Positions 5,948 to 54,900 of a DNA stretch of 64,000 nucleotides are shown here, piece by piece (positions within the stretch are counted from its first letter, which is position 1; each line of letters begins with the position of its first letter). Below the pieces are notes generated by a model. The model was not told the DNA's origin. It saw only the letters and a program-made list of their open reading frames with translations, and searched no databases. Source of the DNA: Naegleria gruberi (taxonomy: Eukaryota). The position numbers and the translations under genes are program-made. The stretch lies in assembly GCA_000004985.1 (NCBI GenBank), contig GG738898.1. The stretch is one strand, 5' to 3'.

Positions 5948-8450
5948 TTGAAAATGAGTCAACCACCTTCCGAACCAACTCAACCAGTATCATCATCACA
6001 GTATGTAGAAAGTCTACCAATTCCAGAGGAATCATCACCAAGATTTAGATCAAATTCAAGGTCTCGAGATGGACCACTCTCTCCTACCTTCCAAAAGATG
6101 CCAGCCGATGTTTGGGATTTATCCTCTGAACACCATTCGAAAAAAGCTTCTCTTCCAAAATCACCATCAAGCTTATTAAAGGGATCTAACTGCAATTTGC
6201 AACAAATTGGAAAAACCAACTCATCATCTCAAGTTACACATCATTCAAAGACAAAATTAACTTTGGACATTATTCGTAAATTGCCAAAAGCTGAATTGCA
6301 CAGACACTTGGATGGTTCTGTTCGTGTTGAAACCATCATTGAACTTGCCAAGGAACAAGGTGTCGATTTGCCATCATTTGATGTTGAAGAATTGAGAAAA
6401 CTTGTCTCTGTTACAAATGATTGCACTTCACTTGTTGAATATTTACGTGGCTTTGATATTTCCCTCTCTGTCATGCAAAAGAGATACAGTATCACACGTA
6501 TCATGTACGAAGTTTGTGAAGATGCTGGAANNNNNNNNNNNNNNNNNNNNNNNNNNNNNNNNNNNNNNNNNNNNNNNNNNAGGTATGAGACAAATGGATA
6601 GCAAGATTACCTTGCAACTTGCAGAAATTGCTTGGCGTTACAGAGACCGTGGTGTCTGTGCCTTTGACTTGGCTGGGCCAGAAAATGGCTTCTCCTCAAA
6701 GAACCATGCTTCTGCATTTGAATTAGTTCATCGTAAAATGTTGAACTGCACTCTTCACTCTGGTGAAGCCAGTGGTTGGGAATCTATTCAAGATTCAATT
6801 CGTTATTGTGGTGCTAATCGTATTGGTCACGGAACTCACTTGAAGGAAAATCCAGACCTCACTCAATATGTTGCCAATCACAGAATTCCAATCGAAATTT
6901 GTATCACCAGTAACTTGCAAACTAAGGCCATTCAAAAATTCGAAGAACATCCAGTTCGTGAATTCTTTGATTATGGTATTGTACTTGTTCCATGTACTGA
7001 TAATACTACTGTTAGTAATGTAACACTCTCTGAAGAATACTTGTTAATTCAAAACCAATTCGGATTTGATGTTAAGGAAATTGTCAAACTCATTGATTAT
7101 GGTTTCCGTTCTGCATTCTTGGACTTGTCTATTAAGAACAGACTCCGTGCTGATGCTCTCCATACCATTCAAGAAATCCTCTCCAGTGAAGGATACGACT
7201 TGACAAGTAGTTTCTCTGCCAAGTCTGCTGTTGATTTGGGCTTTGATTTCAACAATAGAGCTGAAATTCTCCCAGTTGACTATGATCTCTACAAGAATGA
7301 AACCATCAGACAATTCATCAATTCCATTCCAAAGGCTGATGTTAACTGTCGTTTCAATGGTTCAGTTTCTGTTGATACTTTGTGGACAAACTTGTCACAC
7401 GATGAATACTCTACCGATTTCCTCAATTTGGAATTGGAATTATTAGGATTGGGAAGAATTCACTCCAAGAATGAATTGGAATGTCTTATTAGACCACCTG
7501 GAGCCAAGCATGACAAGTCAACAATTGCTCGTGCCATTCAAGTCATGTCCTTGTTCTTACAAACTAAGAGTCAAATTATTCATGGTTGTGAAGATATTTT
7601 AGAAAAGGCTGCTGCTGAGCATGTCTTTTATCTTGAATTACAAGTGAGACCAACTATGCACACCAAGAGAGGTCTCAGTGCTCAAGAAGTTTTGGATGTC
7701 ATGGTTGTTACTATCAATGAATGCAGCAAGAGATATAATATTCAAGTTGGTCTCGTTGTTTATGGTGATTTTACTTCCGATGGTTTGGACCAATTGAAAG
7801 AACTTTCCCTCCTCACCATTAGAAATAAGAAGAATTTGGTTGGTTTTGGTTTCTTTGGATACAATGATGAAAAGGGTGCTATCCTCCCTGAATTAATCCC
7901 AGTTTTCAACATGTTGAAGAATCATCAAATTAACGTTTGCTGTTCTGCTGGTTTCTATAATCCTCTCAGTGTCATTCCTGCTATCCATGATGTTGGTGCT
8001 TCTAGATTGAGTGGTTGTTTCTCCATCCACTCTTCTCCATCTGTCATGAGCTACTTGTGTGACAATGGTGTTCCTATTGAAATTTCCATGACTGATACTT
8101 TGAAGAATCTCACAAAGGAAGTTAATGAATTTGCTGGATCTGCTGTCAGATTATTCTTGGATAGAGGTATCAAGGTTGCTCCATGTTCACTCGATTTGAC
8201 CTTGTACGATATGAATCGTTCTGAAAATATCTACTTGATGTCTAAGGAATGCAATTTGAGTTTGAACGAAGTTGTTCAACTCATGTTAATTGGTTTCCGT
8301 ATCTGTTTCCAAAACTATTGGACTCGTAAGGAAATGTTCATTGGTGCCTATCACACAATGTTGAAATTGGTTGATAATTTGAAACTCACATTTGACACTG
8401 ATTCATTCTCCCTCTTCTGTTCCTCATACAATCCAGCGGAAAAGGATTGA
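5948..8450 (+). CDS. Adenosine/AMP deaminase-family protein with tandem ADA-like domains. Spans the 50-N gap at 6531-6580, which causes an apparent frame change.
   Basis: Domain 1: LPKAELHRHLDGS (His-His metal site), LHSGEASG (HxGE), NRIGHG, VPCTDN. Domain 2 (about 7300-8450) has the same fold-order motifs but is degenerate: CRFNGS, CCSAGF, RLSGCF, SMTDT. The N-terminal 100 aa are Ser-rich. Stop at 8448-8450. Confidence 0.75.
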
Positions 8451-8694: not shown

Positions 8695-9537
8695 ATGGAT
8701 CCACTCACTGCTCAAATTCAATTCACAAAACGACCAATTCTCTACATGTCTCGTTTGGGAAAGGTTTTATTGTCTAACAAGTGGTTCCGAGTTGTGTGTG
8801 GAATTTTACTTTTGGCTGGTTGTGATGTTTTGGCTTGGATGATGACAGTTTCATGCTTGGTGGTGACTGGATTTGTGCTGTATGGAGTTTCCATGTTCAG
8901 AAAGAGAAAGGAATGTAGTATTGCGCATGGCAAAGACGAGCAAGATATTGAATGGTTGAATGAAACTCTTGGTGGCGATATTTCATTGGTGGATGATGCA
9001 CTTGGTCAAGTAATTGAGAGTTGTAAGAGTGAAAAGAAGAGTTTGATTATTGTGGGAGTTGGATTGGGAGCTGTTTTGAAGAGATTGGAAAAATTAAATC
9101 ACTTGATGGAACAATTCGAAAATGTGAAAGTTTTGGAACCAAATGAAACAATTATTAGAAAATGCAAGGAAATAGCAACAAGTAGTAAGATTGAATTTTT
9201 GAGCTGTGAATATTTGGATATTTCCAAATGTTCAGCCGATATTGTCATGTTACAAATGGAATATTTGAAGCATTTAGACAACAAGTCAATTGCTCAATTA
9301 ATTCAGAATTGCAGAAATATTGCAAAGGTTGGATTGATTATTGGTGATTTACAAAGATCAAATTTTATTGGCATGCTTACATTGATCAATGTTGGTTCCT
9401 GTATTTCTACTCATGATTTATTAACTTTGAGTGAGTGGAATAACTTTTTGAATCGCCAAGTTAAAGTGGAAACAAATCAAATCTCGAGTGTTTGGACATT
9501 CGGAAGAACTACCTTGATGGTGAGTGGAAATATTTAA
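8695..9537 (+). CDS. Hypothetical membrane-anchored protein with a Rossmann-like GxGxG motif
   Basis: ATG at 8695. Two N-terminal TM segments, then LIIVGVGLGAVLKRL. No confident family. Its stop overlaps the stop of the convergent gene 9534..10532. Confidence 0.45.
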   Translation: MDPLTAQIQFTKRPILYMSRLGKVLLSNKWFRVVCGILLLAGCDVLAWMMTVSCLVVTGFVLYGVSMFRKRKECSIAHGKDEQDIEWLNETLGGDISLVDDALGQVIESCKSEKKSLIIVGVGLGAVLKRLEKLNHLMEQFENVKVLEPNETIIRKCKEIATSSKIEFLSCEYLDISKCSADIVMLQMEYLKHLDNKSIAQLIQNCRNIAKVGLIIGDLQRSNFIGMLTLINVGSCISTHDLLTLSEWNNFLNRQVKVETNQISSVWTFGRTTLMVSGNI

Positions 9538-10532
9538 CAGCACTTTGAATCTTCAGTCAAGAGGCAAGTCTTCTTCACATAGTGATAGAGTATTTGAGAT
9601 TCTTCGTATCTGTATGATTTCCACGATTCTACTAACTGAGTGATCCATTCCTTGATTAATAATTGTTCAGATTCAGTTAGTGAATTGTCTTGAATGAAAG
9701 ATTCAAAGAAGCTCTGATTTTCCAAGTATTTAATTGGACAATCTCTTAGTGAAATCCATTCTTCTATCATATTCTCTTTCATAGCTTGGTTCAATTGAGC
9801 AGAGAGTTTGCTCTTTAGAGATTCCACCAACTTTCCAAAATTCATACCGATTGGAATAATTCGATTTGTCAATTGGCAATGCCTTTCCAGCGATAATTCA
9901 AAAACTCTTTCCATAGAATCTAATGAATCCACAAATAAATCCTCCAAACCTTCGCACACTACATCATCCAACAATACTACAGCTCGATAGGCAAACCAAT
10001 TTCCAATCTCTGGATGAAAACTCAAATACGAAATTCCATTCTCATAAAAAGCAAAACCAGAAACCTGGCCAGCTACTTGAATGGCGACTCTCGGATAATT
10101 TCCAATAAATTCATGGCTGTAAAATGTTGAAGTTGGTTGTTTTTCATCACAACTTTCCATTACTTTTTTCACACAATCCATCGTATAGGAATCGAGTGGA
10201 TTCTTCTGCTGTAAATTTCCATTCTTATCAATCAAATGATTCTCCACAAGATGACCCTTGAATTTAGGCCATAAATTCTTTGTATTTCCAATCAAAATGG
10301 CTACACAATCATCATCGGAATTTGAATTTTTCTTTAATTTTTCATACGGTTTCAACAATGTTTCTGGAGTTTTCTGTTGTGATTTATAATATTGATTGTA
10401 TCTGGAGAGTGGAAATGGTTGGAAAATATCAAAACCACACTCGGCAAGTTTAGCTTTGGCTTGTGTTAAAAAATTACGAGCTTGACATGCTTTCATTTTT
10501 TTAATTTGGGTTTTGTTGTAATCCAAACTCAT
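9534..10532 (-). CDS. MMACHC: MMACHC (cblC)-like cobalamin-processing protein
   Basis: ECGFDIFQPFPLSRYNQ aligns with human MMACHC CPFGFEVYPFQVAWYNE. HPEIGNWFAYRAVVLLDDV aligns with HPRFGGWFAIRGVVLLPGI. ATG at 10532 overlaps the upstream stop (ATGA). An alternative start is Met14. Confidence 0.75.
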   Translation of the reverse strand: MSLDYNKTQIKKMKACQARNFLTQAKAKLAECGFDIFQPFPLSRYNQYYKSQQKTPETLLKPYEKLKKNSNSDDDCVAILIGNTKNLWPKFKGHLVENHLIDKNGNLQQKNPLDSYTMDCVKKVMESCDEKQPTSTFYSHEFIGNYPRVAIQVAGQVSGFAFYENGISYLSFHPEIGNWFAYRAVVLLDDVVCEGLEDLFVDSLDSMERVFELSLERHCQLTNRIIPIGMNFGKLVESLKSKLSAQLNQAMKENMIEEWISLRDCPIKYLENQSFFESFIQDNSLTESEQLLIKEWITQLVESWKSYRYEESQILYHYVKKTCLLTEDSKCC

Positions 10533-11617
10533 TCCAGGAATGAAAACACAACTTCCAATACCTCACCTGGCAAATCACCAATTAATGGAGCATGTCTATT
10601 GGCAATCAGTAGCAGGAGATTAATCATTGCTCTCTTCTCCTTTGAGAAATGTTGATGCAATTCTCGCATCCAGTAAACACCTTTAAAAACTGGATATTGA
10701 TTCGAATCAAAACCAGATTCATTCGAGGTGAATTTGGCTCTATCATTGCTCACTGATAAGATCTTCTTACTGGATCTTCTTGAAGGACAGTTCGCTTTTA
10801 TATCCAAATTCTCAGAAGAAATTCCAAAATTCTTCACTCTATCATTATCCCACTTCAGGTATGGCAAATAAATCAATGCATGATTATTGAAAATATGGTA
10901 TAATTCTGGATCAAAAAAGAATTGACTATCAGTTTGCCCCTTTCCCTGTAAAAGCAATAGATTTTTTCTGGAACACATTTCTACATGATTATCAGAAAGA
11001 GCTACATTCCAAACTGACATTTGGCTCATAAATCCTTCATAATAGCCACTACCTGGGTGGCCTATCATAGAATATCCAATACAGAGCTTATTTTGCAGAG
11101 GTGGATCCAACATCTTCAAATCACTCAAATGCACCACGTCCAATTCTCCATTAATATAAAATCTCATTTCTCCCTTCTTAAAAGTCACACAACAATGATT
11201 CCACTCCCCAATTCTAACACTCCTTCGACTGCTCACACAATTGACCCCCACAGCAACATCATCCCTTCTCGAACCAAGAAACCTCACCTTATCCATATGC
11301 AAATCAAAACCAAAGCCTGCAAAATTCTCTCCAGCCACAGAAGAATCAAAAATTCTAATATCTCCATGTTTTGTAGGATGAACCCAAGCCATCATGGTCA
11401 ACTCATCAAAAGGCTGGATCATCATCTCGGAGGGAACTTTCATTTCATAATACAAATTAACCTCAGAACTAAACTCGAACACACTATTAATTCCCGAGTG
11501 ATTCATATCATGTAAATCTTCATCATCTTGTTGTCTGGTGCTGTCGTTGTAGAGGGCTCCTACAAACAAGGCTCTTACAAAGTTTGAGTTGGAAACTTGA
11601 TGGGCTCGTCGACTCAT
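10529..11617 (-). CDS. Concanavalin-A-like (LamG/SPRY-type jellyroll) domain protein with a C-terminal F-box-like motif
   Basis: ATG at 11617. Jellyroll-type block ...WVHPTKHGDIRIFDS...GFGFDLHMDKVRF...GEWNHCCVTFKKGEMRFYINGEL. Ends ...LPGEVLEVVFSFLE, which looks like an F-box start, immediately before TGA at 10529-10531. Confidence 0.55.
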   Translation of the reverse strand: MSRRAHQVSNSNFVRALFVGALYNDSTRQQDDEDLHDMNHSGINSVFEFSSEVNLYYEMKVPSEMMIQPFDELTMMAWVHPTKHGDIRIFDSSVAGENFAGFGFDLHMDKVRFLGSRRDDVAVGVNCVSSRRSVRIGEWNHCCVTFKKGEMRFYINGELDVVHLSDLKMLDPPLQNKLCIGYSMIGHPGSGYYEGFMSQMSVWNVALSDNHVEMCSRKNLLLLQGKGQTDSQFFFDPELYHIFNNHALIYLPYLKWDNDRVKNFGISSENLDIKANCPSRRSSKKILSVSNDRAKFTSNESGFDSNQYPVFKGVYWMRELHQHFSKEKRAMINLLLLIANRHAPLIGDLPGEVLEVVFSFLE

Positions 11618-12744: not shown

Positions 12745-15532
12745 TTACAAAACAAAATTGAGAAGGACAATCAAGAAGGCACCAATAAGGAGTGAATAGA
12801 AATTCTTAGGTGCCTTGCTGAGGACCATTTCCAATTCTGTTTGTTGGATATTGAAAGTGCTTGAAATGACCATACTGAAATTTTGATCGCCGACATTGTT
12901 TTCATTTGCCATGACGTTTACAGTGCAAATGTCACTCTTAGTAGTAAAGTACACCTGTTCGACAGTATTAACCTTGTCCAACATTCCATTCCCTAAATAT
13001 TCTTCACCACCCGTACAATGAACAGAAAGATCCAAATCATTGATTAATTTGGTAACATTGGAAGTCATGTCTGATTGAGAAGCTCTATCATACCATGTAA
13101 GAGTAATCTTGATAGCATTCCTAGCTTCGAAAAGGAAGGTATAGGATTTCTTTTGTCCTGGTGAAATTGGTTGTCTATTCAAAACTCTGAGAGTATCTGG
13201 ATTGGAGAATTTCATAACAGTGTCCAAACTAACTGTACCATAACCATAAATAGGATTTGGAGAAGAATAACTTGAAATATCAATGGAAGGATCAGTGAGA
13301 GATGAATAGATGGCACCTTCAACTGGAAGTGCAGAGTGAATAAGGAAGGCCTTAATCAAAGTACCTGACACACTCAATGTTTCATTCTCTCCCAAAGTGT
13401 TATTCAAATTGAAATATCTCAAACGTTCATAATTATTAGCAGTGAGATATTCTCTAACAAGTGCAGCCGAACCCGACTAAATAACACCATGTGCCAAATT
13501 CAGTAAATACAATAACTTATTAAAGTAAAAAATAATAGAAATAACATACGACACCTGGTGTTGACATTGATGTTCCGCTCAATGCCACAAAGTCACAAGT
13601 TGATCCACTCTTTGCAGACATTATGAAATGACCTGGGGCCATAACATCTGGCTTGTTTCTTCCATCCATGGTTGGACCTTTTCCTGAGAAGAGAGGCATT
13701 CCCATACTGAAAGTTGAATACTTGCTTTCACATTTGGAGGCACTCATTGAGGTAGAATTACAATAGGATGTGTAATAGTTGTGAACTGCTCCGACAGAGA
13801 GTAAATTCTTGGCTGTTGCTGGAGCTGAAATACTTTCTAAAAGTGAAATATTGCCACTGTTACCTGAAGCTTGGACAATAATCATGTCATCGTGGTCATA
13901 GAGGAATTGATCCATCAAACTTGCTTGGTCACTGTAGCCAAGACATTGTTGGTGACATTTCACACCCTTCTCTGCCATGCATTCAGTGTCATTGACTATG
14001 GCTCCTCTTTGTCCATTCTGTTTCAATCGGTAACAAACTCTGTTATAGTCGCAAGAGTAACTTGAAGGTTTGCATCCCCAAGAGTTGGAGTGAATTCTAG
14101 AGCCAGCCAAATTGTAAGCTCTATTTAACATTCCTTGTAAATCATAGTTTGATGCCACAGAACCATCAGCACTTGAAGAGAAATCAATCACATAGAGTTT
14201 TGCATTCTTGGCCACACCATTTCTTTTCGACATTGAACTGGAAGGATATCTAGATGACAAATCACCAGCAATAATACCAGCAACGTGTGAGCCGTGTCCA
14301 TTGGTATCAATCATGTCCATTCCTTCAATACCAACAACCTTTTTATGATTGAAATTAATGGATGTATAGTTGGTTGCATTCTTATCGTAGAATAAACAGT
14401 GCTCTACAGAAATTCCTGTATCAATATAGGAAACAATTTGATTCTTTCCTGTAATTCCGTTATCCCAAATGGTTGATCCTAATTCTTCAATTCTTCCTCC
14501 TTGAACAACATTGTTCATTCCCTCATCGAAGAGTTGAGTTTCAGTAGCTCTGGAAACATGGATAATTGACTCATCAGAGGAAAGTTGTTCATAGAGAGAT
14601 TGGGCTAATTGTACATTCAAATTCTCAAGCATTCTTCTATTTCTTGTTGGTTCAGACTCCACTTCAATGAATTGATTTGGGCTCAATGAAAATAACTTAT
14701 TTCTTGGGTGGAGGAGTTGAGTGAGTGAAAAATCAAACTTTCCGCTCAATTCCTTATTCATCCATTCAGTATTGGATTCAAAGGTTGATTCTAATCCTCT
14801 CACTCTGGACAATTCACTTTCAGACATACTCCTTACAGTGGTTCTCACTCGCTTGTTTACTTCTCCCTTTAACCAATTCGAAAGCTTTCTCTCTGAAAAT
14901 CCATGAGATGTTTCAATCAAGAGTGGAGCTCTACTCAATGATAAAACATCACTAATAGGAATTGAAATTCTATGAGAGGAAGGAACTCTCTTAATCCACT
15001 CAATATTCAATGATTTCATTCTTGATGAAGCCAAAGAGAGAATAACCTTCGGAGTTGCTAGTACCTTAAAGATTCTATTGTTTGTTCCGTATTGTGGTAC
15101 AAAGTTCTTGTCAAAGTTTGATGTTTTCTTCATCAAATCATTTTCCTTATTATCATCGTTGTTTTCAAAGGCAAGAGCTATTTGTTGGAGAAGTGAATCT
15201 TTCAAAAGGACTCCATCAGCAATTTTAATATAAGTCAATAAGTAATCATTCGGTCTATCAAAGAGCATTGCTTTGTATTGTTCAATATTAGAACTAATTG
15301 AAGTTGAAGCAACTTTCACTTGTATCTTTGTTTGATGATGAAAGGAGAGAAATAATTTGGCCAAACAAGGACCCACCGATTCAAATCTTGATATTTCTGT
15401 TGCATTTACATTCCCCAACAGACAGAACAACACAACGATCATCATCATTGCAACAATTAAAAAAGCAGAAGTAACACCTCTTCCGCTGTTGTTACTCGTC
15501 CTCATCCTCTTCTTCTTCTCTAATATCTCCAT
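12745..15532 (-). CDS. Subtilisin-like serine protease (peptidase S8) with N-terminal signal/TM. Exons: 13550..15532, 12745..13476.
   Basis: Catalytic triad contexts DTGISVEHC, HGSHVAGIIAG and GTSMSTPGV|SGSAALVREYL, where the Ser motif spans a 73-nt intron (gtatgt...tttag). ATG at 15532. Confidence 0.85.
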
Positions 15533-22344: not shown

Positions 22345-22804
22345 NNNNNNNNNNNNNNNNNNNNNNNNNNNNNNNNNNNNNNNNNNNNNNNNNNTCTCTG
22401 CTTCAGGTAATTGTACTTTGTTTTCAATATCAATATTAACATCGTCCATTAGCTTTTCTTTTTCGGAATAGCTTGTTCATAGGTTGGACTTTCTGGCATA
22501 AAAAAGTGAGTTGGGCCACTGGTAGGTTCATCAGCTTGGTCATCCTTGTTTCCTTCTACTGTTGTATCATCCTCTTCATCAGAATATTCTCTTTCTCTCT
22601 TGTTGAAAGAATTTAACATTTTAAAGATTTTTTTTAATTTTAAATTATCTTGTGAAATCATCTCACTTTTCCAAGTTGTCAACTTGCTCATCCTGCAGCT
22701 TAGAATTTGAAATAAACTAAAATAAAATAAATTAATCCAAGCAATAAACAACGTATCCATTCCAGCTCTTGCTCTATTAAGCTACATTTCGATTATTAAT
22801 TTGG

Positions 22805-24980: not shown

Positions 24981-27900
24981 TTAATATTGGTAAAACACAA
25001 CAATAGCTAACAAGAAAGAAATTAAACAAGACAAGTTAACAGCTGGAGCCATACTAATCTTGGTACTAGATATTGGATCTGTCGTAGTAGATTGGATCAA
25101 AACGTAAATTCCGGTGCTTTTGACTGAAGCAGTGACTGTACCATCAGTTCCCAAAACAACTGTGCATCCAACATCTAAAAGATTACTAGTTGTTGGATCA
25201 ATCTTCTTACAAGAGGTAATTGTTCCTGCAACAGATCTACTAGACAAACCCTTTGTTTCAAATACCAAATCAGCAATAACAGAATTGGAGGAAACTGATA
25301 TTACACTTGTATCATTGCTAAGGGAGAATTCCATAGACTTGGTGACAGCATTTGAAATTGCTGTAGAGGAGGCAGTTTTGACAACAAGGTGAACAGACTT
25401 GGTATTGGCTAGTTCTGAGAGAGCAGAAACACCACTCTTGAACATTATTTGATTCTTTCCTGTTGTTGTTTGAACCAAATTGTTCAATGTCACAATATTG
25501 ACCTTTCGTGAAACTGTGGTGACTCCATTAGCTGTTACTGTGGCAGCTGGACCATCAGGAACAGAGTCCTTAGTCTTTAATGTGGCAACACTAGCAAATA
25601 CTTTATCCAAGTTTGCGATATCAGCATTACTGAATACTCTCTTGGTCACACCTTTCTTCACAATGTAATCAAGGAAATTGTTTGCAGTACTGGTTGTGCC
25701 TTCAATAGCAGAATTGGACAAACTGGCAGATGAGCTCTTGACAACTGCTGAAGTCGTCTTGGCCAAATTCTCTACGACCTTAGAAGTCGTAGAATCACTA
25801 ACAAGACCTTTAGCAACAGAAGCAGAAACAGAGGCAGTAAATGACAAACTATTTTCAGCAGAAGCAGACGAAACTGAAGTGACAGCCTCAGCCTTGGCTT
25901 GTTGATTCAAGAAGGCTTCTGTAATTGAGGAAGCAGCTTGTTGAATAGCAGCTTTTTGTTCTTCTGATGGATTATCTATTGAACCAATGACCGACATGAC
26001 AGAGGAAGCAGCTGCCAAGGTAACAGTATCCTTACCAGATGCAATGACTGACAATGCGCTTGTGGCAGCAGCTGCACTTAGTTTAGTAATGGTTACAGTG
26101 GTTTCTGATTCAGAGGCAGCTCCAAGTGAGTCATAAACAACAGCCTTAACTCTCAATGAGGTACCAGAGGCAGGTTGTGGAAGTTGGACCGAGGCACTTT
26201 GTCGTTCACTCTTTTCAGTAAAGGAATTCCATTTAGTGGAAGCAGAATCATAGTAGAAGAATTGGAATTTCAAAGGAGTTTGAGGATCAGACCAACCATT
26301 ACCACACTTCAAATCGAATGAATCACTCAAAGCAACACCAATTTCTGGATAAACTTCAAATGTTCCCTTTGTAGGTGGAGAATTTACAGTGAAGGTCAGA
26401 GAGGCAATACCAGATTTATCTCCATCATCAACAAGGAGTGTAACAACATAGGAAGCACCTGATACAAGGTTAGCACTTGGAATTGTGAGAAGTGATGCCT
26501 TGGATTCGTCACCAGTTTCAGACACCCAGGAGAAACTTGGTGATAATAATTTGTCCAAAGTATTGTATGTGAGATACAAATCCTTTGTTGGATCCACAGT
26601 TGTCAAGTCAACATTTGAAATAATAGAAACTCTAATAATCTTATCCTTGGCACTATCAATTAGAGAAATAGTCAAGGTGGCCTTGGCCTTTCTGGAACCC
26701 TTAGTTGCAACAGCTGTAAATGTGTAAGTACCAGAAGAGAAAGAGGCCCTAAATGTAGAAGCATCTTCAGGACTGCTTGGACAATTTAATCCAGTAGAAT
26801 CCACACAATTTGTGGAGAGAGACAACACATCTTGCGTATTACTAGGATCCTTTACACTGATAGAGAATTCGATTGGGTCATCCTTTGATTGAGTAATATC
26901 TGGAACACTGAAAGAAACCAAGATTGGTTGAGCCTCAGCTGTAACTTTAACAGTGGTAGTTACTGGTTCTGCTACATCAGCAGTGGCCTTAATTACAAAG
27001 AAATAGTCTCCTTCCAAGTTAATATTGGTATAACCAGATCCAAGAATCATCATGTTGTTATTGACAGAAGTTGACAATGATGAAACCTTAGAAACACTTC
27101 CATCAAGGGTAAACGTATAAGTTGTTGAACCAGTGCCATTGTAACACACAGGGAAGGAAATTACAGGAGTAATCAAACCAATTGATCCAATCAAATACTT
27201 GATTGAAAGTCCTTCCTTAACACTGAGTGTTGGTGCAGCCTTGGCAATTACTGTGAAAGAGATAGACTTGAAAGAAGTTAATCCGAATGCACTCGAAACA
27301 GCTACCTGAATTGAGTAGATTCCAGCAGATAGTCCAGCAGTTCTCATATTAATTTTATATCCACTCTTTTGAGAAGAAATGAGGCTGGACAACTTGCTTT
27401 GGTCTTCAGAGGAAGGCCCATTAGTACAAGTCCAAGAGAATGTAAGAGGGCGACGATCCAATGAAACGGAATCAAAAGCGTTCAATGATAATACGTCACA
27501 TTGAGATACTAATGTCTTGTCAGAAGTCAAAGAAGCAGTTGGAGCAATAGCAACAAATTCACCAGCATCAATAGAAACTGCAAGGGTCGAATTATTATCT
27601 CCCATAAGGGAATAGACACTCAATATATTACCAGTAACTATTGAGGCTCCAGCTCCTAAAACAATTTCTAGGGATGATTTTCCATCCATATTACATTGTG
27701 GACCAGAACCAAGCTTATCCAAATTGGAAATTATTTGAGAGCAAGGAACTTGTTTTTTCACAGTGTTGTAAATTTTTGCAGTGATTCTATCTCCATTGGC
27801 ATTGAATTTGAAGGAAGTGGTATCAACCTTATAATTACAAGCGTCACCTCTGAACCCATTCAAACATTTTCCAGGGATACAATTGAAAGCAGGGTCATAA

Positions 27901-30900
27901 TTACCTGTACAATAACATGTACCCGTCTTTGTGCAGGTACCATGTGAATTACAAGTGGTTGCAGCAGAACAAGCAATATCACATTTATCTCCAACAAATC
28001 CACTCTTGCAAGAAGAACAAAATTCTCCATCAAAATTTCCATTACAAACACATTTGAAATTGGAATCACAAGAACCATGAGAGTTACAAGTTTCTGTTGG
28101 TGAACACATTGCAGTTGAGCAAGTTTCTCCTGAATATGCTGGACTGCAGCTAGTGCAGGTATTATTCTTATTATTCCAATTGGCAACACATTCACATGTA
28201 TTTGGAGCAATACATTTTCCTCTAGTGCTTCCACCACAAACATTGCTGTCACTCTTTGGAATACCGTAACAGGAAAAGCTTTGACAAATTGATCCAGAGT
28301 ATCCAGACCTACATGAACAATTATTAGGAGCAGTACATTCACCTCTGCTACCACACACAGAACTATCAGTTGCAGGAGTATTATAACAAACAGGTATGTC
28401 ACACTTGGATCCCATATAACCAGTCTTACAAGATAAACAGAATGTAGAAGGATCAAAATTACCCTTACAAATACATGTATCAGTGGCATTACATGCACCA
28501 CGCAAAGAACATCCTCCCAAAATTTCACTCTTACCATTACATGTTGGATTATCACATTTAGCACCTGTTGAGCCAGATTTACAAATGCAAGTATCTGGGG
28601 CAACACATGAACCCTTTCCAGAACATACAGATGCATCACTATTAGTCTTTGAGAAACATACTGGTTTTTCACAATTAGTTCCATCATAACCAGTTACACA
28701 ACGACAAACATCTTGAGAAATACAAGAACCCTTACCAGAGCAAACATCATAGGCTTTTGCCAATTTTCCAAAGCAAGTAGTGGTGTCTGGAAGATAAAGT
28801 CCATAATGACAACTTGATTCTGGGAAATAGCTACATGACTCATTCTTTGGTAATGACCAGAAAGCACTGGCTTGGTCGTACATTACTTCACAGGCAGCTC
28901 TACAGAATGGAACAGAATTGGCTGTGGTGTTTTTGCACGACATGAAAGTTCTGTAACATGCATTTCTTTTGATATGAATCAAACAATCGGCAGTAACGCA
29001 GTTAGGATTGTACAATGATCCCATTTGGAATGTTGAATTAGCTTGAGCATCCAATTTAGCAAGATTTGCAGCAAGGAAAATAGAGGCTTCACCTGCACTC
29101 TTTGCTCCTGACATTAAATTCAAATTGTACAATGGTAAAATGACGTCAGCAGCATAACAGAATGGAGTAGAAGAGGAAGACATTTCATTGATACAAGCTG
29201 GAGTAAGTGAGAAGGAGGTCTTTTCACAATTGTTACCTTCATATCCAGAATCACATATGCATCTTCCATTCTTACAAGTACCGTGGTCAGAACAGGAAAC
29301 ATCATAGCATTGATCAACATAATTAATCTCTGATGAGCAACCCTCATTGTCATTCAAAGAACCACACAAAGTTTCCAGAGAGTTATTTCCAACTAAATAA
29401 GGCATCAACATAGTTTCGCATGCACTTTTACAGATTGGATTGTATACTCCTTTAACAAGTTCAGTAACCCAAGAGCACATTGGGAAATGTGAATAGCAAG
29501 AATATCTCTTGTAGACCAGACGACAAGCTTCTGTGGTACATGCAATCATGAGTTGTTCGGCCATTGTACGAGATGACTGATCCAAAACTTTGAGAGCAGC
29601 AATTCTGACCTGTGGTACTGCAACCTCACCTGTATAATTTGCTAACAGATTATATCCGTCTTGTGACAAGTACTGCATTATATAGTGTTCAACACCAGCA
29701 GCTACACAAAAAGGTGTGTTTGCGGCTTGCATGCCAGTGTAACAAGTGACAGCAGCATATTTTGAACAGGTTGGACCATAATAAAAGTAATCTGGTGTGG
29801 ACTGACAAATACATTTTCCGGCAAGACAAGTTCCATTAACACATTGGTTATTACATGAATCTGTTTCAGTGTCATTTACAATCACCAAGTCTTGGCACAT
29901 AGTCCCAGTGTATCCTGTGTCACAAGAGCATTTTCCTTCCAAACAAGTTCCATTATAACATTTTATGCTAAAACAAAGATCTGTTTGATTTTTGACTACA
30001 TCTGATTGATCACACAATGTTCCAATGTAACCAGAGTCACAATTACAAACACCCTCAATACATTTTCCATGTACACATACAATATCTTTACACTTATTTT
30101 GAGTGGAGGTGTTGTTTGTGCTTGTATCATTTGATGGAATAGTATTATTATTGGAACTTGGGAGAGTTGAATTTGAGGTTGTCGAATTTGAGGAACTATC
30201 AGGACTGGTTCCATTGTAAGTTTGAGTACTGTTACTTGTACTATTATAATCAGTAATATTAGAGGAGTTTGGGCTTGTTGGATCCCTGCTTGTGTTGTTT
30301 GTGGCTGTGTCATTGGATAATGTAGTATTTTTTCCATGGGAGCTATCAAAACTAGTTCCATTATTTCCTTGAGTATTGTTGCTACTAGTACTATTGTGGT
30401 TAGTAATATTAGTGGAGCTTGGACTTGATGGATCAATATTCGTGTTGTTAGTAGTTGTTGTGTTATTGGATAAAGTGGTATTACTTGTATTGGTTGTGTT
30501 GCTGGTTGTTGAAGCATTGGCAACTGTGTCAGTATTGACAGAAGGTTCTAAAAGTTTCAATTCACAGAAAGTTCCATTATATCCCTGTCCACAAACGCAA
30601 ACGTTATCAGTGGTACAATTACCATGAGAGTTACAAACAAAAGAATCATAGGAACGTGTTCCATTACATACATAATAACTTGATGAACAATCGCTTCCAT
30701 AGAAAGATGCCTTACATGAGCAACCAGAAAAAGTGCAATTACCATTTCCTGAACAAGCAAGTTTTGATGATTGGGGAATGTCATTACAAATAGCTTCATT
30801 TTCACAAAAAGTTCCATTGTAACCAGCTTTGCATAAACATTGATTAAGGCCTATACATTGACCATTTCCAGAACAAACATTGTCCTCTGTTTCCAACAAT

Positions 30901-32426
30901 CCATTACAAACATAGTGAGTGAATTGACATTCTTGTCCATATGCCAATGTAGTTCGTGGTTCTGATGAAGTACCAATTGAGAAGACAACTGCTCCCTTAG
31001 AGTTATAAATCCTAAAAGTACCATCATTTCCAAAGTTAAACATTGGTGGGGTGTTTGCACCCACACCATGACAAAAATCGTTTTCAAGGTTCAAAATACT
31101 ACTATCGAAAGTGGTAGTGAAGAAATAGCCTTCACGTGTTATCCAAAAATATTCAATGGGAGTAAACTCCCCTTCTAAAATTCTCCACAATTCCTTTCCA
31201 CCACATTTAGAGACAACTCTAGTGCTGGTGTCATTGTTTTCATTAAGATAATACTCAACACCCAAAGTGCAGTTACCATTTGATGATGTAAGGTATAGAT
31301 TTGTATTGCTATCAAAATTAATATGATGGTCTCCATTCGCAACAATCATTTGATCATTTGTGCAACTACATAAAGAACTATTGAGACAAGAACCACGATA
31401 GTGGCATGACTTGGCACTTTCACAAACAAAGTCATATATTTCACAATTCGAACCAGTGTAGCTCAAATTGATACAATCACACGTGTCATCAGCAGTACAT
31501 TTTCCAGCGCCACTACAAACATTCGGATCGGATTCAGAAACATTGAAACATGAAAAATGGCAATCAGGATAGTGACCTCCAGTACAAGTACAATTATTCG
31601 TTGCAACACAAGTGCCTTTTCCATTGCATACCTTAGAATTGCTTGCATCATATCCAAAACAAACATGTTTTGAACAATCAGAGCCTCCCCATACTTCTGG
31701 TGAGTTACATTTACAACCACTTTCTGTACATATTCCTCTTCCATTACAAACAGTTGGATCAGTACTAACAATGTTATCGCAATAATGTAATGGTTCTTCA
31801 CATGTTGTTCCATTAAAATCTTGCCATTGGATGGACGAATCAAAGAATCCTGTTGACCAACATTCCTTACCTGTGGAATCATAGACTGTAAATAAGGCAT
31901 CCTTTCTGAAGAAGGAATAGAATGGAGCAACTCCTTCACATGGAATTGAAGTGTTGCCATCCTTATTGACAAGTGGAGAACAATTATTCACATCCAGCGA
32001 ATTATCATTTGTTAAACCACACACTGCAACGGAGCCATCAGGTTTGAGAGTTAGTAAGTTTTGACCTATTCTTAAATGTTGAGTGTGGATGTTGTTTTCT
32101 TTCACTTTAATCATAACGATTTGATTGTCTGCAGTGATTCTTGAGAGCCAAGAAACACCATCTCTTTCATAGTACATTGGTTCATCACTTTGCAACCAAT
32201 AGTATTGTGCAGTGCCATTAGCTAGCTTTGTATTAGAGTTTGCTCCATATGAAAGAGTAGTAAGGCACCGACAACTATTCCCTTCTGGATTACAGAATCC
32301 TCTTCCGTTACACGATTCTGGTCCGGTACACTTGAATGAAGTACCACCATTCACCAAGCCTACCAACAACAATGAAAGCACTCCAAGGAGAAGTACACCT
32401 TGAATTTTCCCCAATGCGAGAGTCAT
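24981..32426 (-). CDS. Giant (2481 aa) secreted or membrane-anchored EGF/tenascin-like repeat protein with a mucin-like Ser/Thr/Asn tract and a C-terminal hydrophobic anchor
   Basis: Single 7.4-kb exon. N-terminal signal MTLALGKIQGVLLLGVLSLLLVGLVNG. Dozens of Cys-rich EGF-like units (CxCxxGYxGxxC), an NTSNTT... glycosylation-rich linker, a Thr/Ser/Val/Ala-rich C-terminal half, and the terminal hydrophobic LSCLISFLLAIVVFYQY. Confidence 0.8.
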   Translation of the reverse strand: MTLALGKIQGVLLLGVLSLLLVGLVNGGTSFKCTGPESCNGRGFCNPEGNSCRCLTTLSYGANSNTKLANGTAQYYWLQSDEPMYYERDGVSWLSRITADNQIVMIKVKENNIHTQHLRIGQNLLTLKPDGSVAVCGLTNDNSLDVNNCSPLVNKDGNTSIPCEGVAPFYSFFRKDALFTVYDSTGKECWSTGFFDSSIQWQDFNGTTCEEPLHYCDNIVSTDPTVCNGRGICTESGCKCNSPEVWGGSDCSKHVCFGYDASNSKVCNGKGTCVATNNCTCTGGHYPDCHFSCFNVSESDPNVCSGAGKCTADDTCDCINLSYTGSNCEIYDFVCESAKSCHYRGSCLNSSLCSCTNDQMIVANGDHHINFDSNTNLYLTSSNGNCTLGVEYYLNENNDTSTRVVSKCGGKELWRILEGEFTPIEYFWITREGYFFTTTFDSSILNLENDFCHGVGANTPPMFNFGNDGTFRIYNSKGAVVFSIGTSSEPRTTLAYGQECQFTHYVCNGLLETEDNVCSGNGQCIGLNQCLCKAGYNGTFCENEAICNDIPQSSKLACSGNGNCTFSGCSCKASFYGSDCSSSYYVCNGTRSYDSFVCNSHGNCTTDNVCVCGQGYNGTFCELKLLEPSVNTDTVANASTTSNTTNTSNTTLSNNTTTTNNTNIDPSSPSSTNITNHNSTSSNNTQGNNGTSFDSSHGKNTTLSNDTATNNTSRDPTSPNSSNITDYNSTSNSTQTYNGTSPDSSSNSTTSNSTLPSSNNNTIPSNDTSTNNTSTQNKCKDIVCVHGKCIEGVCNCDSGYIGTLCDQSDVVKNQTDLCFSIKCYNGTCLEGKCSCDTGYTGTMCQDLVIVNDTETDSCNNQCVNGTCLAGKCICQSTPDYFYYGPTCSKYAAVTCYTGMQAANTPFCVAAGVEHYIMQYLSQDGYNLLANYTGEVAVPQVRIAALKVLDQSSRTMAEQLMIACTTEACRLVYKRYSCYSHFPMCSWVTELVKGVYNPICKSACETMLMPYLVGNNSLETLCGSLNDNEGCSSEINYVDQCYDVSCSDHGTCKNGRCICDSGYEGNNCEKTSFSLTPACINEMSSSSTPFCYAADVILPLYNLNLMSGAKSAGEASIFLAANLAKLDAQANSTFQMGSLYNPNCVTADCLIHIKRNACYRTFMSCKNTTANSVPFCRAACEVMYDQASAFWSLPKNESCSYFPESSCHYGLYLPDTTTCFGKLAKAYDVCSGKGSCISQDVCRCVTGYDGTNCEKPVCFSKTNSDASVCSGKGSCVAPDTCICKSGSTGAKCDNPTCNGKSEILGGCSLRGACNATDTCICKGNFDPSTFCLSCKTGYMGSKCDIPVCYNTPATDSSVCGSRGECTAPNNCSCRSGYSGSICQSFSCYGIPKSDSNVCGGSTRGKCIAPNTCECVANWNNKNNTCTSCSPAYSGETCSTAMCSPTETCNSHGSCDSNFKCVCNGNFDGEFCSSCKSGFVGDKCDIACSAATTCNSHGTCTKTGTCYCTGNYDPAFNCIPGKCLNGFRGDACNYKVDTTSFKFNANGDRITAKIYNTVKKQVPCSQIISNLDKLGSGPQCNMDGKSSLEIVLGAGASIVTGNILSVYSLMGDNNSTLAVSIDAGEFVAIAPTASLTSDKTLVSQCDVLSLNAFDSVSLDRRPLTFSWTCTNGPSSEDQSKLSSLISSQKSGYKINMRTAGLSAGIYSIQVAVSSAFGLTSFKSISFTVIAKAAPTLSVKEGLSIKYLIGSIGLITPVISFPVCYNGTGSTTYTFTLDGSVSKVSSLSTSVNNNMMILGSGYTNINLEGDYFFVIKATADVAEPVTTTVKVTAEAQPILVSFSVPDITQSKDDPIEFSISVKDPSNTQDVLSLSTNCVDSTGLNCPSSPEDASTFRASFSSGTYTFTAVATKGSRKAKATLTISLIDSAKDKIIRVSIISNVDLTTVDPTKDLYLTYNTLDKLLSPSFSWVSETGDESKASLLTIPSANLVSGASYVVTLLVDDGDKSGIASLTFTVNSPPTKGTFEVYPEIGVALSDSFDLKCGNGWSDPQTPLKFQFFYYDSASTKWNSFTEKSERQSASVQLPQPASGTSLRVKAVVYDSLGAASESETTVTITKLSAAAATSALSVIASGKDTVTLAAASSVMSVIGSIDNPSEEQKAAIQQAASSITEAFLNQQAKAEAVTSVSSASAENSLSFTASVSASVAKGLVSDSTTSKVVENLAKTTSAVVKSSSASLSNSAIEGTTSTANNFLDYIVKKGVTKRVFSNADIANLDKVFASVATLKTKDSVPDGPAATVTANGVTTVSRKVNIVTLNNLVQTTTGKNQIMFKSGVSALSELANTKSVHLVVKTASSTAISNAVTKSMEFSLSNDTSVISVSSNSVIADLVFETKGLSSRSVAGTITSCKKIDPTTSNLLDVGCTVVLGTDGTVTASVKSTGIYVLIQSTTTDPISSTKISMAPAVNLSCLISFLLAIVVFYQY

Positions 32427-37130: not shown

Positions 37131-37408
37131 AATTTGTATTACAATAAAGTTGTCAATTAATTGATTGATTCATTTCAATCTAACATCAATTCAATTAACC
37201 ATGCCANNNNNNNNNNNNNNNNNNNNNNNNNNNNNNNNNNNNNNNNNNNNNNNNNNNNNNNNNNNNNNNNNNNNNNNNNNNNNNNNNNNNNNNNNNNNNN
37301 NNNNNNNNNNNNNNNNNNNNNNNNNNNNNNNNNNNNNNNNNNNNNNNNNNNNNNNNNNNNNNNNNNNNNNNNNNNNNNNNNNNNNNNNNNNNNNNNNNNN
37401 NNNNNNNN

Positions 37409-51937: not shown

Positions 51938-54900
51938 CTAATGATGATTTGGATCAAAAACGATTGGACCAATACAATTGACAAGATTTTGGTAATTAGG
52001 ATCACGAGTATTGTTTGCATGACTTGCACTGGCCTTTTTCTTTTCACAGGCCTTTCCCAACATCATCATTAAAAGTTCCTTTGAAAGATCTTCATCAGAT
52101 TCATCATCTGGAGCAATCATTTCGAATACTCTTTCCATAATGGAAGGATACAAACGTAAAAGATCGTATGAATCTACAGAATGACCGTACATGGCCTCAT
52201 CGAATGGTTCTCCTTCTCCATAACTGTCACAATCAGGAGCAACAAAGCATAATGGTAAGACACTTTCAATAAATCTCAAAATACAATGTTGATGACTTGT
52301 AAGACCAGTAATTTGCCATGTTGGATGTAATTCATCATCTTTTTCTTGGTCATATCTTTGAGAAGATAATTCTGCTTGTCTCTTTCTTGCATCCTCCTCT
52401 TCAGTTTCATTAAAGAGTTTTTTCACACGATTGGCTTCAGATCTTTCAATTTTAGAAATTATCAATTTGACACAAGTATCATGGAAAATGTAGAGGAATC
52501 TCTTGTGTTTTCTTTCAGATGAAGGAATGGACTTGATCTCAGGGAGATGTTGATACAATGCTTGTTCAGTCATTTTAAAAACACCCAATGCTTTCATAAA
52601 AGATTTCTCATTAACCTCTTGCATTTGCTTCTTTGTGAGCTTGGTAACTCCTTCAATGTAGAGAATTGGAAGATCATTTTGAGGAGCACACTTGCAAATT
52701 CTATCAGAATGTCCAGTACAGCATTTTCTATAAAGATCATGAAGGGACATGTCCGACAAGTGAAGGAATTTACAATTCTTTCCATTACCACATGATTGAA
52801 TAGAACTGTGCTTCATGCAAACCTCGGTCTTTTTTTGAGGAGCTTGAGGTTCAGGAATAATTTCTACAACTTCCTTCTTTTTGCTCTTTGGTGTGGTGAG
52901 TGGAGGAAATTCGTCAGGATGTTCCTGTTGATACTTGATATAGAATGATCTGTCGTGTGAGTATGGGCAAATTCCAGATCCAAATTTACACTTTCCTTTA
53001 AAGTGATCTCTACAAGGTTTGTTATAACCCTCCTCTTTAGCTTCAGTTTTAGTTTTGGTTTCAACCTTTTCCACTTTCTCAGGTTCAGGTTTTTCCTTCT
53101 CTTCCTTTTTAGGTTGTGGTGTTGGTTCATTCTTCTTCTTGTTCTTATTTTTCTTGGAATTTTTGGAAGAAACTGGTTGTGTTTGGGTTTGTTTTTTGGT
53201 AGTCTTTTCACTTGATTGAATTTCTGCAGGAACACTCTCAAGCACACTGAAAGAGTTTGATGAAGATGCTAATGGTATCTTGTCTGGAATTTCCTCGAGG
53301 ACTTTCTTCTTCTTACCAGAAGATGAGGTTGTAAACGAATTATTTTTGGATTTGGAAGAAGTGTCCAAATTTCTCAAATATTCCAACTCAAATTCTCTTT
53401 GAAGCTTTTTAGCCAACTCTTCATCAAGTTTCTCTTGTTCACTCTTTTCCTCCTTCTCTAGTTTTGGTGTTTCCACGAGCGGCTTTACTTCCTGGGCAGC
53501 TTTGGCTTTATCATTCTTTTTCTTGGATTTGGATTTTTGTGAAACTGGTTGTGGCTCTGGTTTTTTCTTGGCTGACTCCTTATTCTTATCACTAGGTGTT
53601 GTAGAATTGATTTCAGGGGTGCTGACTACTGTTNNNNNNNNNNNNNNNNNNNNNNNNNNNNNNNNNNNNNNNNNNNNNNNNNNNNNNNNNNNNNNNNNNN
53701 NNNNNNNNNNNNNNNNNNNNNNNNNNNNNNNNNNNNNNNNNNNNNNNNNNNNNNNNNNNNNNNNNNNNNNNNNNNNNNNNNNNNNNNNNNNNNNNNNNNN
53801 NNNNNNNNNNNNNNNNNNNNNNNNNNNNNNNNNNNNNNNNNNNNNNNNNNNNNNNNNNNNNNNNNNNNNNNNNNNNNNNNNNNNNNNNNNNNNNNNNNNN
53901 NNNNNNNNNNNNNNNNNNNNNNNNNNNNNNNNNNNNNNNNNNNNNNNNNNNNNNNNNNNNNNNNNNNNNNNNNNNNNNNNNNNNNNNNNNNNNNNNNNNN
54001 NNNNNNNNNNNNNNNNNNNNNNNNNNNNNNNNNNNNNNNNNNNNNNNNNNNNNNNNNNNNNNNNNNNNNNNNNNNNNNNNNNNNNNNNNNNNNNNNNNNN
54101 NNNNNNNNNNNNNNNNNNNNNNNNNNNNNNNNNNNNNNNNNNNNNNNNNNNNNNNNNNNNNNNNNNNNNNNNNNNNNNNNNNNNNNNNNNNNNNNNNNNN
54201 NNNNNNNNNNNNNNNNNNNNNNNNNNNNNNNNNNNNNNNNNNNNNNNNNNNNNNNNNNNNNNNNNNATTAAAAGTTGTCCTCCATTTGGGTTATTGTTCA
54301 TTAAACCACCACTAGCCGAGTTACTCACTCCAAGACCATTGTTGCCTGTTGTATTAAATCCAACAAGATTATTTCCACCACCAATATTATTATTCCATCC
54401 AAGAGCACTATTTGTATTGCCCATAGATAGATTTAGATTATTAAATTGTTGTTGTTGCTGTTGTTGAAAGGCTCTATTTCCAAAATCATTGTGAAATGAT
54501 GATAACAGGGAGCTAGAAGGATTGTTCAAATTATTGACCAATCCGCCATGTAAACCACTACTTCCACCAGTGTTTAAATTACCAGTCAGGCCATTATTAA
54601 AGGAGTTGTTACCCAAATTATTATTCACAAGGCCATTGTTGACCATATTTCCCATGGGAGGAGCATTCATTACATGATTCCTTGTGCCAATAGGTTCTGT
54701 TGTAGAGGAACCCAACAAGGACAATCCAAATGGATTTGAATTTGTATTTGTCAAATTACTATTGGATAAATTATTATTATTTCGTAAGAGATTGCTTGCT
54801 AAATTGTTATTATTACTCGGAGAATGAGAGAATAACTTGTTATTTCCCAATAATTGAAAGCCATCATTATGTGGATTATTCGTTGATATTGGTTGTTGTT

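Follow-up and report, generated by a model that had tools for sequence, protein, structure and literature searches.

A single gene in a 64,000-nucleotide (nt) stretch of Naegleria gruberi DNA (contig GG738898.1 of assembly GCA_000004985.1; the whole stretch is referred to here as the window) encodes two adenosine deaminase (ADA) domains in one polypeptide. The first domain (D1) keeps the catalytic residues of the family and the second (D2) has lost them. The order along the gene is a Ser-rich disordered extension, D1, a short linker and an ADA-fold D2. The architecture and the loss of catalysis in D2 are regarded as almost certain. The reading that best explains the observations as a whole, namely a live D1 joined to a dead, selected D2 partner with a single old origin, is considered probable. 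The main features, given as window positions, are as follows.

5954-8450, plus strand: whole coding sequence of the tandem ADA/pseudo-ADA, broken only by an assembly gap (from the open reading frames (ORFs), the match to the public N. gruberi protein P0001 and the intron-less ORFs of relatives)
5954-6262, plus strand: Ser-rich N-terminal extension, amino acids (aa) 1-103, predicted to be disordered (from composition and alignment)
6263-6529, plus strand: N-terminal part of D1, with the first barrel strand carrying the HxH metal ligands and with the substrate lid helix (PF00962 positions 1-81)
6531-6580: assembly gap of 50 N inside D1, hiding about 148 nt (50 codons) with the second and third barrel strands
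6582-7187, plus strand: C-terminal part of D1 (PF00962 positions 137-324; TIGR01430, 160 bits)
7188-7307, plus strand: inter-domain linker, a stop-free ORF read directly
7308-8378, plus strand: D2, the ADA-fold pseudo-enzyme domain (from PF00962, hhalign, AlphaFold2 (AF2) and Foldseek)

The coding sequence was read as two pieces, from the ATG at 5954 to 6529 (192 codons) and from 6582 to the TGA at 8448-8450 (622 codons), the latter in a different frame and free of stop codons. The encoded residues were 100% identical to P0001, and the G+C content of the window was 34%. With 50 missing codons between the pieces, the full N. gruberi protein is expected to be about 864 aa (192 + 50 + 622). An earlier note on this DNA, made from the letters and a list of ORFs, had placed an enzyme/pseudo-enzyme pair in one polypeptide behind a Ser-rich extension, with a 50-N gap and an apparent frame change in the first domain. 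All of this was borne out: the extension contained 23% Ser, the N run was found exactly at 6531-6580, the flanking frames differed (5954+3k on the 5' side and 6582+3k on the 3' side), and the frame was open from D1 into an ADA-fold D2 without metal ligands and catalytic residues. Only the start at 5948 had to be moved, since that position is an upstream in-frame TTG and the real start is the ATG at 5954. The D1-D2 junction (about 7150-7340) was completely sequenced, and neither a stop codon nor a gene boundary was found between the halves. The gap lies within D1, about 600 nt upstream of this sequenced junction, and therefore cannot conceal a boundary between them.

The length of the gap was estimated from relatives. 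PF00962 profile positions 82-136 were absent from D1 in the window, where they fall in the gap, and the barrel was complete in the relatives. Exactly 50 residues, bounded by ...CEDA(x) and GMRQ(M/L)DSK, were present at the gap position in the proteins of Naegleria fowleri (P0002), a Naegleria-like metagenome contig (L001) and Willaertia magna (L002). The gene was one intron-less ORF in L001 and L002 (2652 and 2700 nt, respectively) and was likewise uninterrupted at the gap position in N. fowleri. Bases 6530 and 6581 fall in the first and the last of the 50 gap codons, so that two of these codons are partly sequenced and about 148 nt are missing. The frame appears to change because 148 leaves a remainder of 1 on division by 3 and 50 leaves a remainder of 2; on this reckoning, the frame change is an artefact of a 50-N placeholder of arbitrary length. 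The gap is expected to encode about 50 aa resembling N/LDGVKYLEVRFSPILHT..GLSLSSVMEAVVAGRVMAEMNLGI.CRIIVS. In the public N. gruberi model, a protein of 789 aa with the junction ...SIT|QIAWRY..., the gap was spliced over from a GT at 6498 to an AG at 6624. By the same comparison, it is without about 75 residues of the catalytic domain owing to a gap-bridging false intron, and the gap is expected to close at about 148 nt.

D1 was matched by PF00962 on both sides of the gap, with 66.2 bits (E 3.6e-18; residues 111-191, profile positions 1-81) for the N-terminal part and 159.2 bits (E 1.8e-46; profile positions 137-324) for the C-terminal part, against a gathering cut-off of 27. The two pieces of this split domain were individually below the TIGR01430 equivalog cut-off (216.55 bits), and the complete N. 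fowleri orthologue scored 372.7 bits. For the analysis of individual residues, an alignment of 75 tandem homologues was used. The four motifs of D1 that the earlier note had listed (HRHLDGS, HSGE, RIGHG and TDN) were present in the translation at the places given there, and their key residues were invariant in the alignment.

6299-6316, plus strand: HRHLDG, two zinc-ligand His and the ribose-binding Asp (H, H and D invariant in 60/60 homologues covering the position)
6756-6767, plus strand: HSGE, zinc-ligand His and catalytic Glu (H, G and E invariant in 75/75)
6819-6833, plus strand: RIGHG, catalytic His (R, G, H and G invariant in 75/75)
6996-7004, plus strand: TDN, zinc-ligand Asp followed by Asn, a variant of the usual Asp-Asp (D and N invariant in 75/75)

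D1 possesses all four zinc ligands (His, His, His and Asp) together with the catalytic Glu and His. The TDN in place of TDD is, from its occurrence, a subfamily trait common to related single-domain ADAs and no defect; NTDN was also found in a single-domain relative under the name Cloacimonetes (P0093). D1 of the N. fowleri orthologue was 35% identical to Vibrio cholerae ADA (6n91) with all catalytic residues present, and its model overlaid solved ADAs (6n91) with a template modelling (TM) score of 0.94 and a root-mean-square deviation of about 2 A. Membership of the ADGF/ADA2 (CECR1) family failed, with TIGR01431 scores of 40.3 bits for the window piece and 64.9 bits for the orthologue against a cut-off of 315. 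Membership of the adenosine monophosphate (AMP) deaminase family failed as well (PF19326, 14.9 bits against 27; TIGR01429, 15.9 bits against 726). To judge from its motifs, D1 most likely deaminates adenosine to inosine for purine salvage.

D2 belongs to the same fold family. It was matched by PF00962 with 60.1 bits (E 2.5e-16; profile positions 74-309) and by TIGR01430 with 72 bits (E 3.5e-20), so the second half does score as a member of the amidohydrolase superfamily. The presence of two ADA units in the protein is far outside what chance would give. A D2 profile built from 74 homologues was aligned end-to-end with the D1 profile by hhalign (probability 100%, E 5.6e-57, 339 columns, 22% identity), and D2 was aligned to 6n91 with an E of 4.7e-10; the pairing of motifs between the halves agreed in the two alignments. 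The AF2 model of the window's own D2 had a predicted local distance difference test (pLDDT) value of 91.8 and a predicted TM score (pTM) of 0.90. In Foldseek searches with this model, the best solved-structure matches were all adenosine deaminases, with 6n91 at the top (E 1.3e-15, TM 0.86). The alignment to an ADA of known structure, which the earlier note had proposed for both halves, and the D2 model thus confirmed the ADA fold. The pairing by profile-profile alignment and 6n91 also upheld its claim that CRFNGS, CCSAGF and RLSGCF are mutated counterparts of the D1 motifs.

7344-7364, plus strand: NCRFNGS, counterpart of HRHLDGS, with the first His replaced by Asn, the second His by Arg (codon 7350-7352) and the Asp by Asn (profile alignment)
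7938-7955, plus strand: CCSAGF, counterpart of TLHSGE, with the zinc-ligand His replaced by Ser and the catalytic Glu by Phe (profile and 6n91 alignments)
8004-8021, plus strand: RLSGCF, counterpart of RIGHGV, with the catalytic His replaced by Gly (profile alignment)
8184-8195, plus strand: CSLD, counterpart of CTDN, with the zinc-ligand Asp replaced by Leu (profile and 6n91 alignments)
8217-8219, plus strand: D2-specific Arg where D1 has an invariant Leu (Arg in 65/74 D2 sequences)

At the eight key positions, D1 has H, H, D, H, E, H, D and N and the window's D2 has N, R, N, S, F, G, L and D, respectively, so that none of the four zinc ligands, nor the catalytic Glu, nor the catalytic His is left. 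D2 of the 75 homologues kept at most one of the four zinc ligands and at most three of the eight key positions. Among 81 columns invariant in D1, 19 were kept in D2, 11 were partly kept and 51 were lost; among those lost are residues that hold the nucleoside, namely the hydrophobic ones of the lid helix and the Asp of FDLAG. The elements retained in D2 (PK.D, GS, LQ, Y.E...P..H, the R of RxxG and PIR..D) are common to D1 and, from their nature, read as a scaffold for the fold. A few further residues are conserved in D2 specifically: Arg in the place of the second His (64/75), a pattern RxSG with Ser-Gly for Gly-His (66-68 of the 75), an Asp (7779-7781) and a Phe. Because the zinc ligands, the catalytic Glu and His and the adenosine-holding residues are lost, D2 is, as far as its residues tell, unable to deaminate by the mechanism of the family. 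On these alignments, D1 is classed as an ordinary bacterial-type ADA, and D2 as belonging to the fold family through homology while failing the defining catalytic features.

The degenerate D2 was present in all 75 homologues, which come from Heterolobosea, Metamonada and Amoebozoa. The full architecture was found in Naegleria and Willaertia (Heterolobosea), in Anaeramoeba, Paratrimastix, Blattamonas, Histomonas and Aduncisulcus (Metamonada), and in Dictyostelium, Polysphondylium, Heterostelium, Tieghemostelium, Physarum, Pelomyxa, Arcella and Stereomyxa (Amoebozoa). The comparison with orthologues in related amoebae, suggested by the earlier note, thus showed a shared degenerate D2, but one restricted neither to Naegleria nor to amoebae in the narrow sense. 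Several of the homologues are complete transcriptome ORFs with both domains, which indicates one polypeptide in those species. An exhaustive search with D2 only, over 1.84 billion representative proteins, gave 32 clusters at E <= 1e-30, and every full-length strong match was a protein 700-830 aa long with D2 in its C-terminal half. Candidates for free-standing D2 proteins were rejected, since the short matches start within D1 or the linker and are therefore fragments; P0139 was ambiguous. This protein (386 aa, parabasalid-like) has a Met start and a D2-type degenerate domain by itself (DCRLIGS, FVGE, RISGGF and CSIH). In another protein (P0121, 1324 aa), a PfkB-like stretch (25.4 bits, just short of the 25.8 cut-off) and a weak HD_4-like stretch come before the tandem ADA. 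PfkB is a family of sugar and adenosine kinases, and P0121 is either a fusion that ties the tandem ADA to the phosphorylation of adenosine or a gene model in which separate genes were merged.

D2 varies more than D1. The median pairwise identity was 31% for D2 versus 55% for D1, and the identity to N. fowleri was 81% versus 89%. The ratio of nonsynonymous to synonymous substitution rates (dN/dS) against L001 was about 0.17 for D2, 0.105 for D1 and 0.29 for the extension, all three being rough values because dS was saturated (1 or more). By these comparisons, D2 evolves faster than D1, yet is clearly constrained by purifying selection. Homology to an enzyme, loss of the catalytic residues and maintenance by selection, by which a pseudo-enzyme is recognised, are all found in D2. 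The derived residues shared among the D2 sequences show that all these proteins descend from an ancestor whose D2 had already degenerated. The architecture would then have a single origin that precedes its acquisition or inheritance by Heterolobosea, Metamonada and Amoebozoa, with D2 dead by that time.

For the way in which the tandem was made, internal tandem duplication is a plausible and the simplest reading of the sequences, and fusion of two paralogues is possible. The D2 profile scored D1 domains at a median of 195 bits and the closest single-domain ADAs at a median of 214 bits with overlapping ranges, so that duplication and fusion are not separable by that test. The closest single-domain ADAs (P0087-P0092 and P0096; 352 aa) end in a tail of the form ..KG[LF]xxxx[DE]Y[IV], which resembles the tails of D1 (IL..EGYD.S..YY) and D2 (L...GF........F). 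The shared C-terminal tail was tried as a marker of duplication and dropped, since these single-domain relatives have it too. Together, the shared tail and the similar D2-profile scores indicate that both halves come from the same ADA subfamily. To this extent the internal duplication put forward in the earlier note stands; it is not proven, as the D2 profile scores single-domain ADAs as well as it scores D1.

The packing of the two domains was estimated from the full-length model of the N. fowleri protein. The model had a pTM of 0.82 over 899 residues, of which 158 were disordered, made up of the first 128, a loop of 14 residues in the linker and the tail at the C-terminus. With only 741 ordered residues, a pTM of 0.82 is near the ceiling for a single rigid body, and D1 and D2 are expected from the model to form one rigid body and not two beads on a string. 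No solved chain spanning both domains was found in a search of the PDB with the full-length model (best query-normalised TM 0.36). In the mechanism proposed here, D1 would do the chemistry, that is, zinc-dependent deamination of adenosine. D2 would pack rigidly on D1 as a covalent pseudo-dimer and would stabilise or regulate it as a non-catalytic partner. The partner role of D2 is rated as more probable than not.

Several points weigh against a live enzyme with a dead, selected partner. Fifty residues of D1 are unsequenced in this genome, and the activity, metal content and structure of tandem-family members are predictions from sequence. The D1-D2 interface is a prediction drawn from one AlphaFold pTM figure. 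With dS at 1 or more, dN/dS is approximate, and two short segments gave no value. P0139 may be a free-standing pseudo-ADA or a truncated gene model. The conserved residues that are D2's own (two Arg, Asp, Ser-Gly and Phe) could mark a new binding site, to judge from their conservation. In the literature searched, the Dictyostelium gene DDB_G0287371 is a plain ADA with an unknown role, and its second domain is unmentioned there.

The conserved residues of D2 lead to a refinement of the partner role, in which D2 would be an allosteric sensor whose emptied pocket, with its new Arg, binds an anionic effector (a nucleotide or phosphate) and tunes D1. Within the superfamily, AMP deaminase is regulated by adenosine triphosphate (ATP), guanosine triphosphate (GTP) and phosphate. 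The positions concerned are those of the former active site: Arg replaces the second zinc-ligand His (64/75) and the invariant Leu just past the last barrel strand (65/74), Lys or Arg replaces the lid-helix Phe in 59/74, covering most members outside Naegleria, and D2 as a whole is under purifying selection. Most pocket positions of D2, however, are variable, with no consensus where D1 has the third zinc-ligand His and the catalytic Glu; the lid position is Ile in Naegleria, and the Arg residues could equally well engage in salt bridges inside the domain and take up the room left by the metal. The sensor is considered unlikely, and binding of an anion or nucleotide by the Arg residues is a tentative prediction from their conservation. 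If it were true, D2 would be a nucleotide or phosphate switch turning D1 on or off, and many free-living and anaerobic protists would have a regulated ADA of a kind unknown in animals, fungi and bacteria. The sensor module would then date to very early eukaryote evolution or would have spread between supergroups by gene transfer.

Two further explanations were weighed. A bifunctional enzyme, in which D2 has gained a different, metal-independent catalysis, would fit an intact barrel in which a few polar residues are conserved in D2 specifically. No conserved catalytic-like constellation was seen, however. Just three columns (K, E and R) are invariant in D2, and their conservation in D1 as well points to structural roles. 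D2 also evolves far faster than D1 in terms of the median identities given above; new catalysis is rated as highly improbable. The assembly gap in the gene and the wrong public model around it could also raise the suspicion that the tandem is an artefact (merged adjacent ADA genes or misassembly), or else a recent Naegleria-specific duplicate decaying neutrally. The position of the gap inside D1, well upstream of the open junction, and the occurrence of both domains in single intron-less ORFs of relatives and in complete transcriptome ORFs of other protists speak against an artefact. The same degenerate D2 in three eukaryotic supergroups, together with the rough dN/dS of about 0.17, tells against both possibilities, which are effectively excluded.

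The tandem protein was compared with known systems. Bacterial-type Add proteins (TIGR01430/PF00962; 6n91; the single-domain P0087-P0120, a few of them named Cloacimonetes) are closest to D1, which is 45-50% identical to the single-domain relatives. The NTDN variant is common to D1 and these relatives, and the C-terminal tail is common to both domains. Such ADAs are single domains of about 340-360 aa, to which the Naegleria protein adds a dead ADA-fold domain and the disordered extension. The layout of D1, linker and D2 was the same in the Dictyostelium discoideum protein P0049 (773 aa), which we take to be the product of the Dictyostelium 'ada' gene, and in protist 'adenosine deaminase' proteins of about 750 aa. 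At 36% identity across 94% of the query, they are close homologues or orthologues. D2 of the Dictyostelium protein is degenerate likewise (HCRFDG, FAGK, RLSGAF and CSFR). These proteins are without the Ser-rich extension, and the first His and the Asp, lost in Naegleria, are still present in their D2.

The nearest analogies are dead partners in other systems. Pseudomonas PyrC' and the dihydroorotase-like (DHOase-like) domain of yeast Ura2 are amidohydrolase barrels without metal ligands that are kept as structural partners, and resemble D2 in being fused to, or an obligatory subunit of, an active enzyme. Unlike D2, they belong to another family of the superfamily, and they serve the unrelated aspartate transcarbamoylase, whereas D2 has a live version of its own fold as partner. 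In ADAT2/ADAT3 (Tad2/Tad3), an active deaminase is matched with a homologue that lacks the catalytic residue; this system differs in having a cytidine-deaminase fold unrelated to the ADA barrel, two polypeptides and tRNA as the substrate. This tRNA adenosine deaminase heterodimer is mentioned in PMC8217354. ADA2/CECR1 (3lgd), the CRISPR-associated Cad1 (9c67 and 9ebt) and AMP deaminase are ADA-fold oligomers that gave weaker sequence and fold matches here, and ADA-fold domains are often paired in this family. All their copies are catalytic and their extra domains have unrelated folds, unlike in the tandem protein.

No description of the tandem architecture with a dead second domain was found in the full-text literature, of which coverage was incomplete, so that an earlier description elsewhere is possible; literature searches likewise gave no characterised member of the tandem family. 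In databases, the tandem proteins are labelled simply 'adenosine deaminase'. The new finding is a conserved, dead ADA copy joined to the live enzyme in a large family of protist proteins. The family takes in the model organisms Dictyostelium and Naegleria as well as relatives of the pathogenic N. fowleri and Histomonas, and adds a clean natural enzyme/pseudo-enzyme pair to the amidohydrolase superfamily. D2 is a feature missing from the host enzyme and could matter for selective inhibition. ADA is among the best-studied metallo-enzymes, and existing knowledge of the enzyme is not overturned by a D2 whose role is inferred.

The remaining parts of the protein are the extension and the linker. 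In the extension (aa 1-103), Ser, Pro, Thr, Lys and Gln together make up 55% of the residues, and the pLDDT was about 30 across the equivalent residues 1-128 of the N. fowleri orthologue model. In the alignment, the extension was confined to the heterolobosean members of the tandem family. Its identity to N. fowleri was 56% versus 89% for D1, and its weak conservation had one exception.

6065-6121, plus strand: motif RDGPLSPT...P(A/S)DVWDL in the disordered extension, kept in 5/5 aligned heterolobosean sequences

This motif (RDGPLSPT..P(A/S)DVWDL) is possibly phospho-regulated, as a phosphorylation site, or else a docking site. The linker had a low pLDDT at the equivalent residues 497-510 of the N. 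fowleri model, and its identity was 88% to N. fowleri and 10-27% outside Heterolobosea.

Three further gaps were present in the window at 22345-22394 (50 N), 37207-37408 (202 N) and 53634-54266 (633 N), and ORFs listed across these three, such as 51938-55372 on the minus strand, are unreliable as read. The neighbours of the tandem gene are unrelated eukaryotic genes, none of them tied to purine metabolism, and no functional link was seen. A weak methyltransferase-like ORF (8695-9537, plus strand; 22.1 bits against a Pfam cut-off of 27) converges with an MMACHC-like ORF (9534-10532, minus strand), their 3' ends overlapping by 4 nt. Farther downstream lie a Laminin_G_3 protein (10529-11617, minus strand) and a subtilase (13520-15532, minus strand), and positions 24981-32426 on the minus strand encode a REJ/EGF-repeat protein of 2481 aa.

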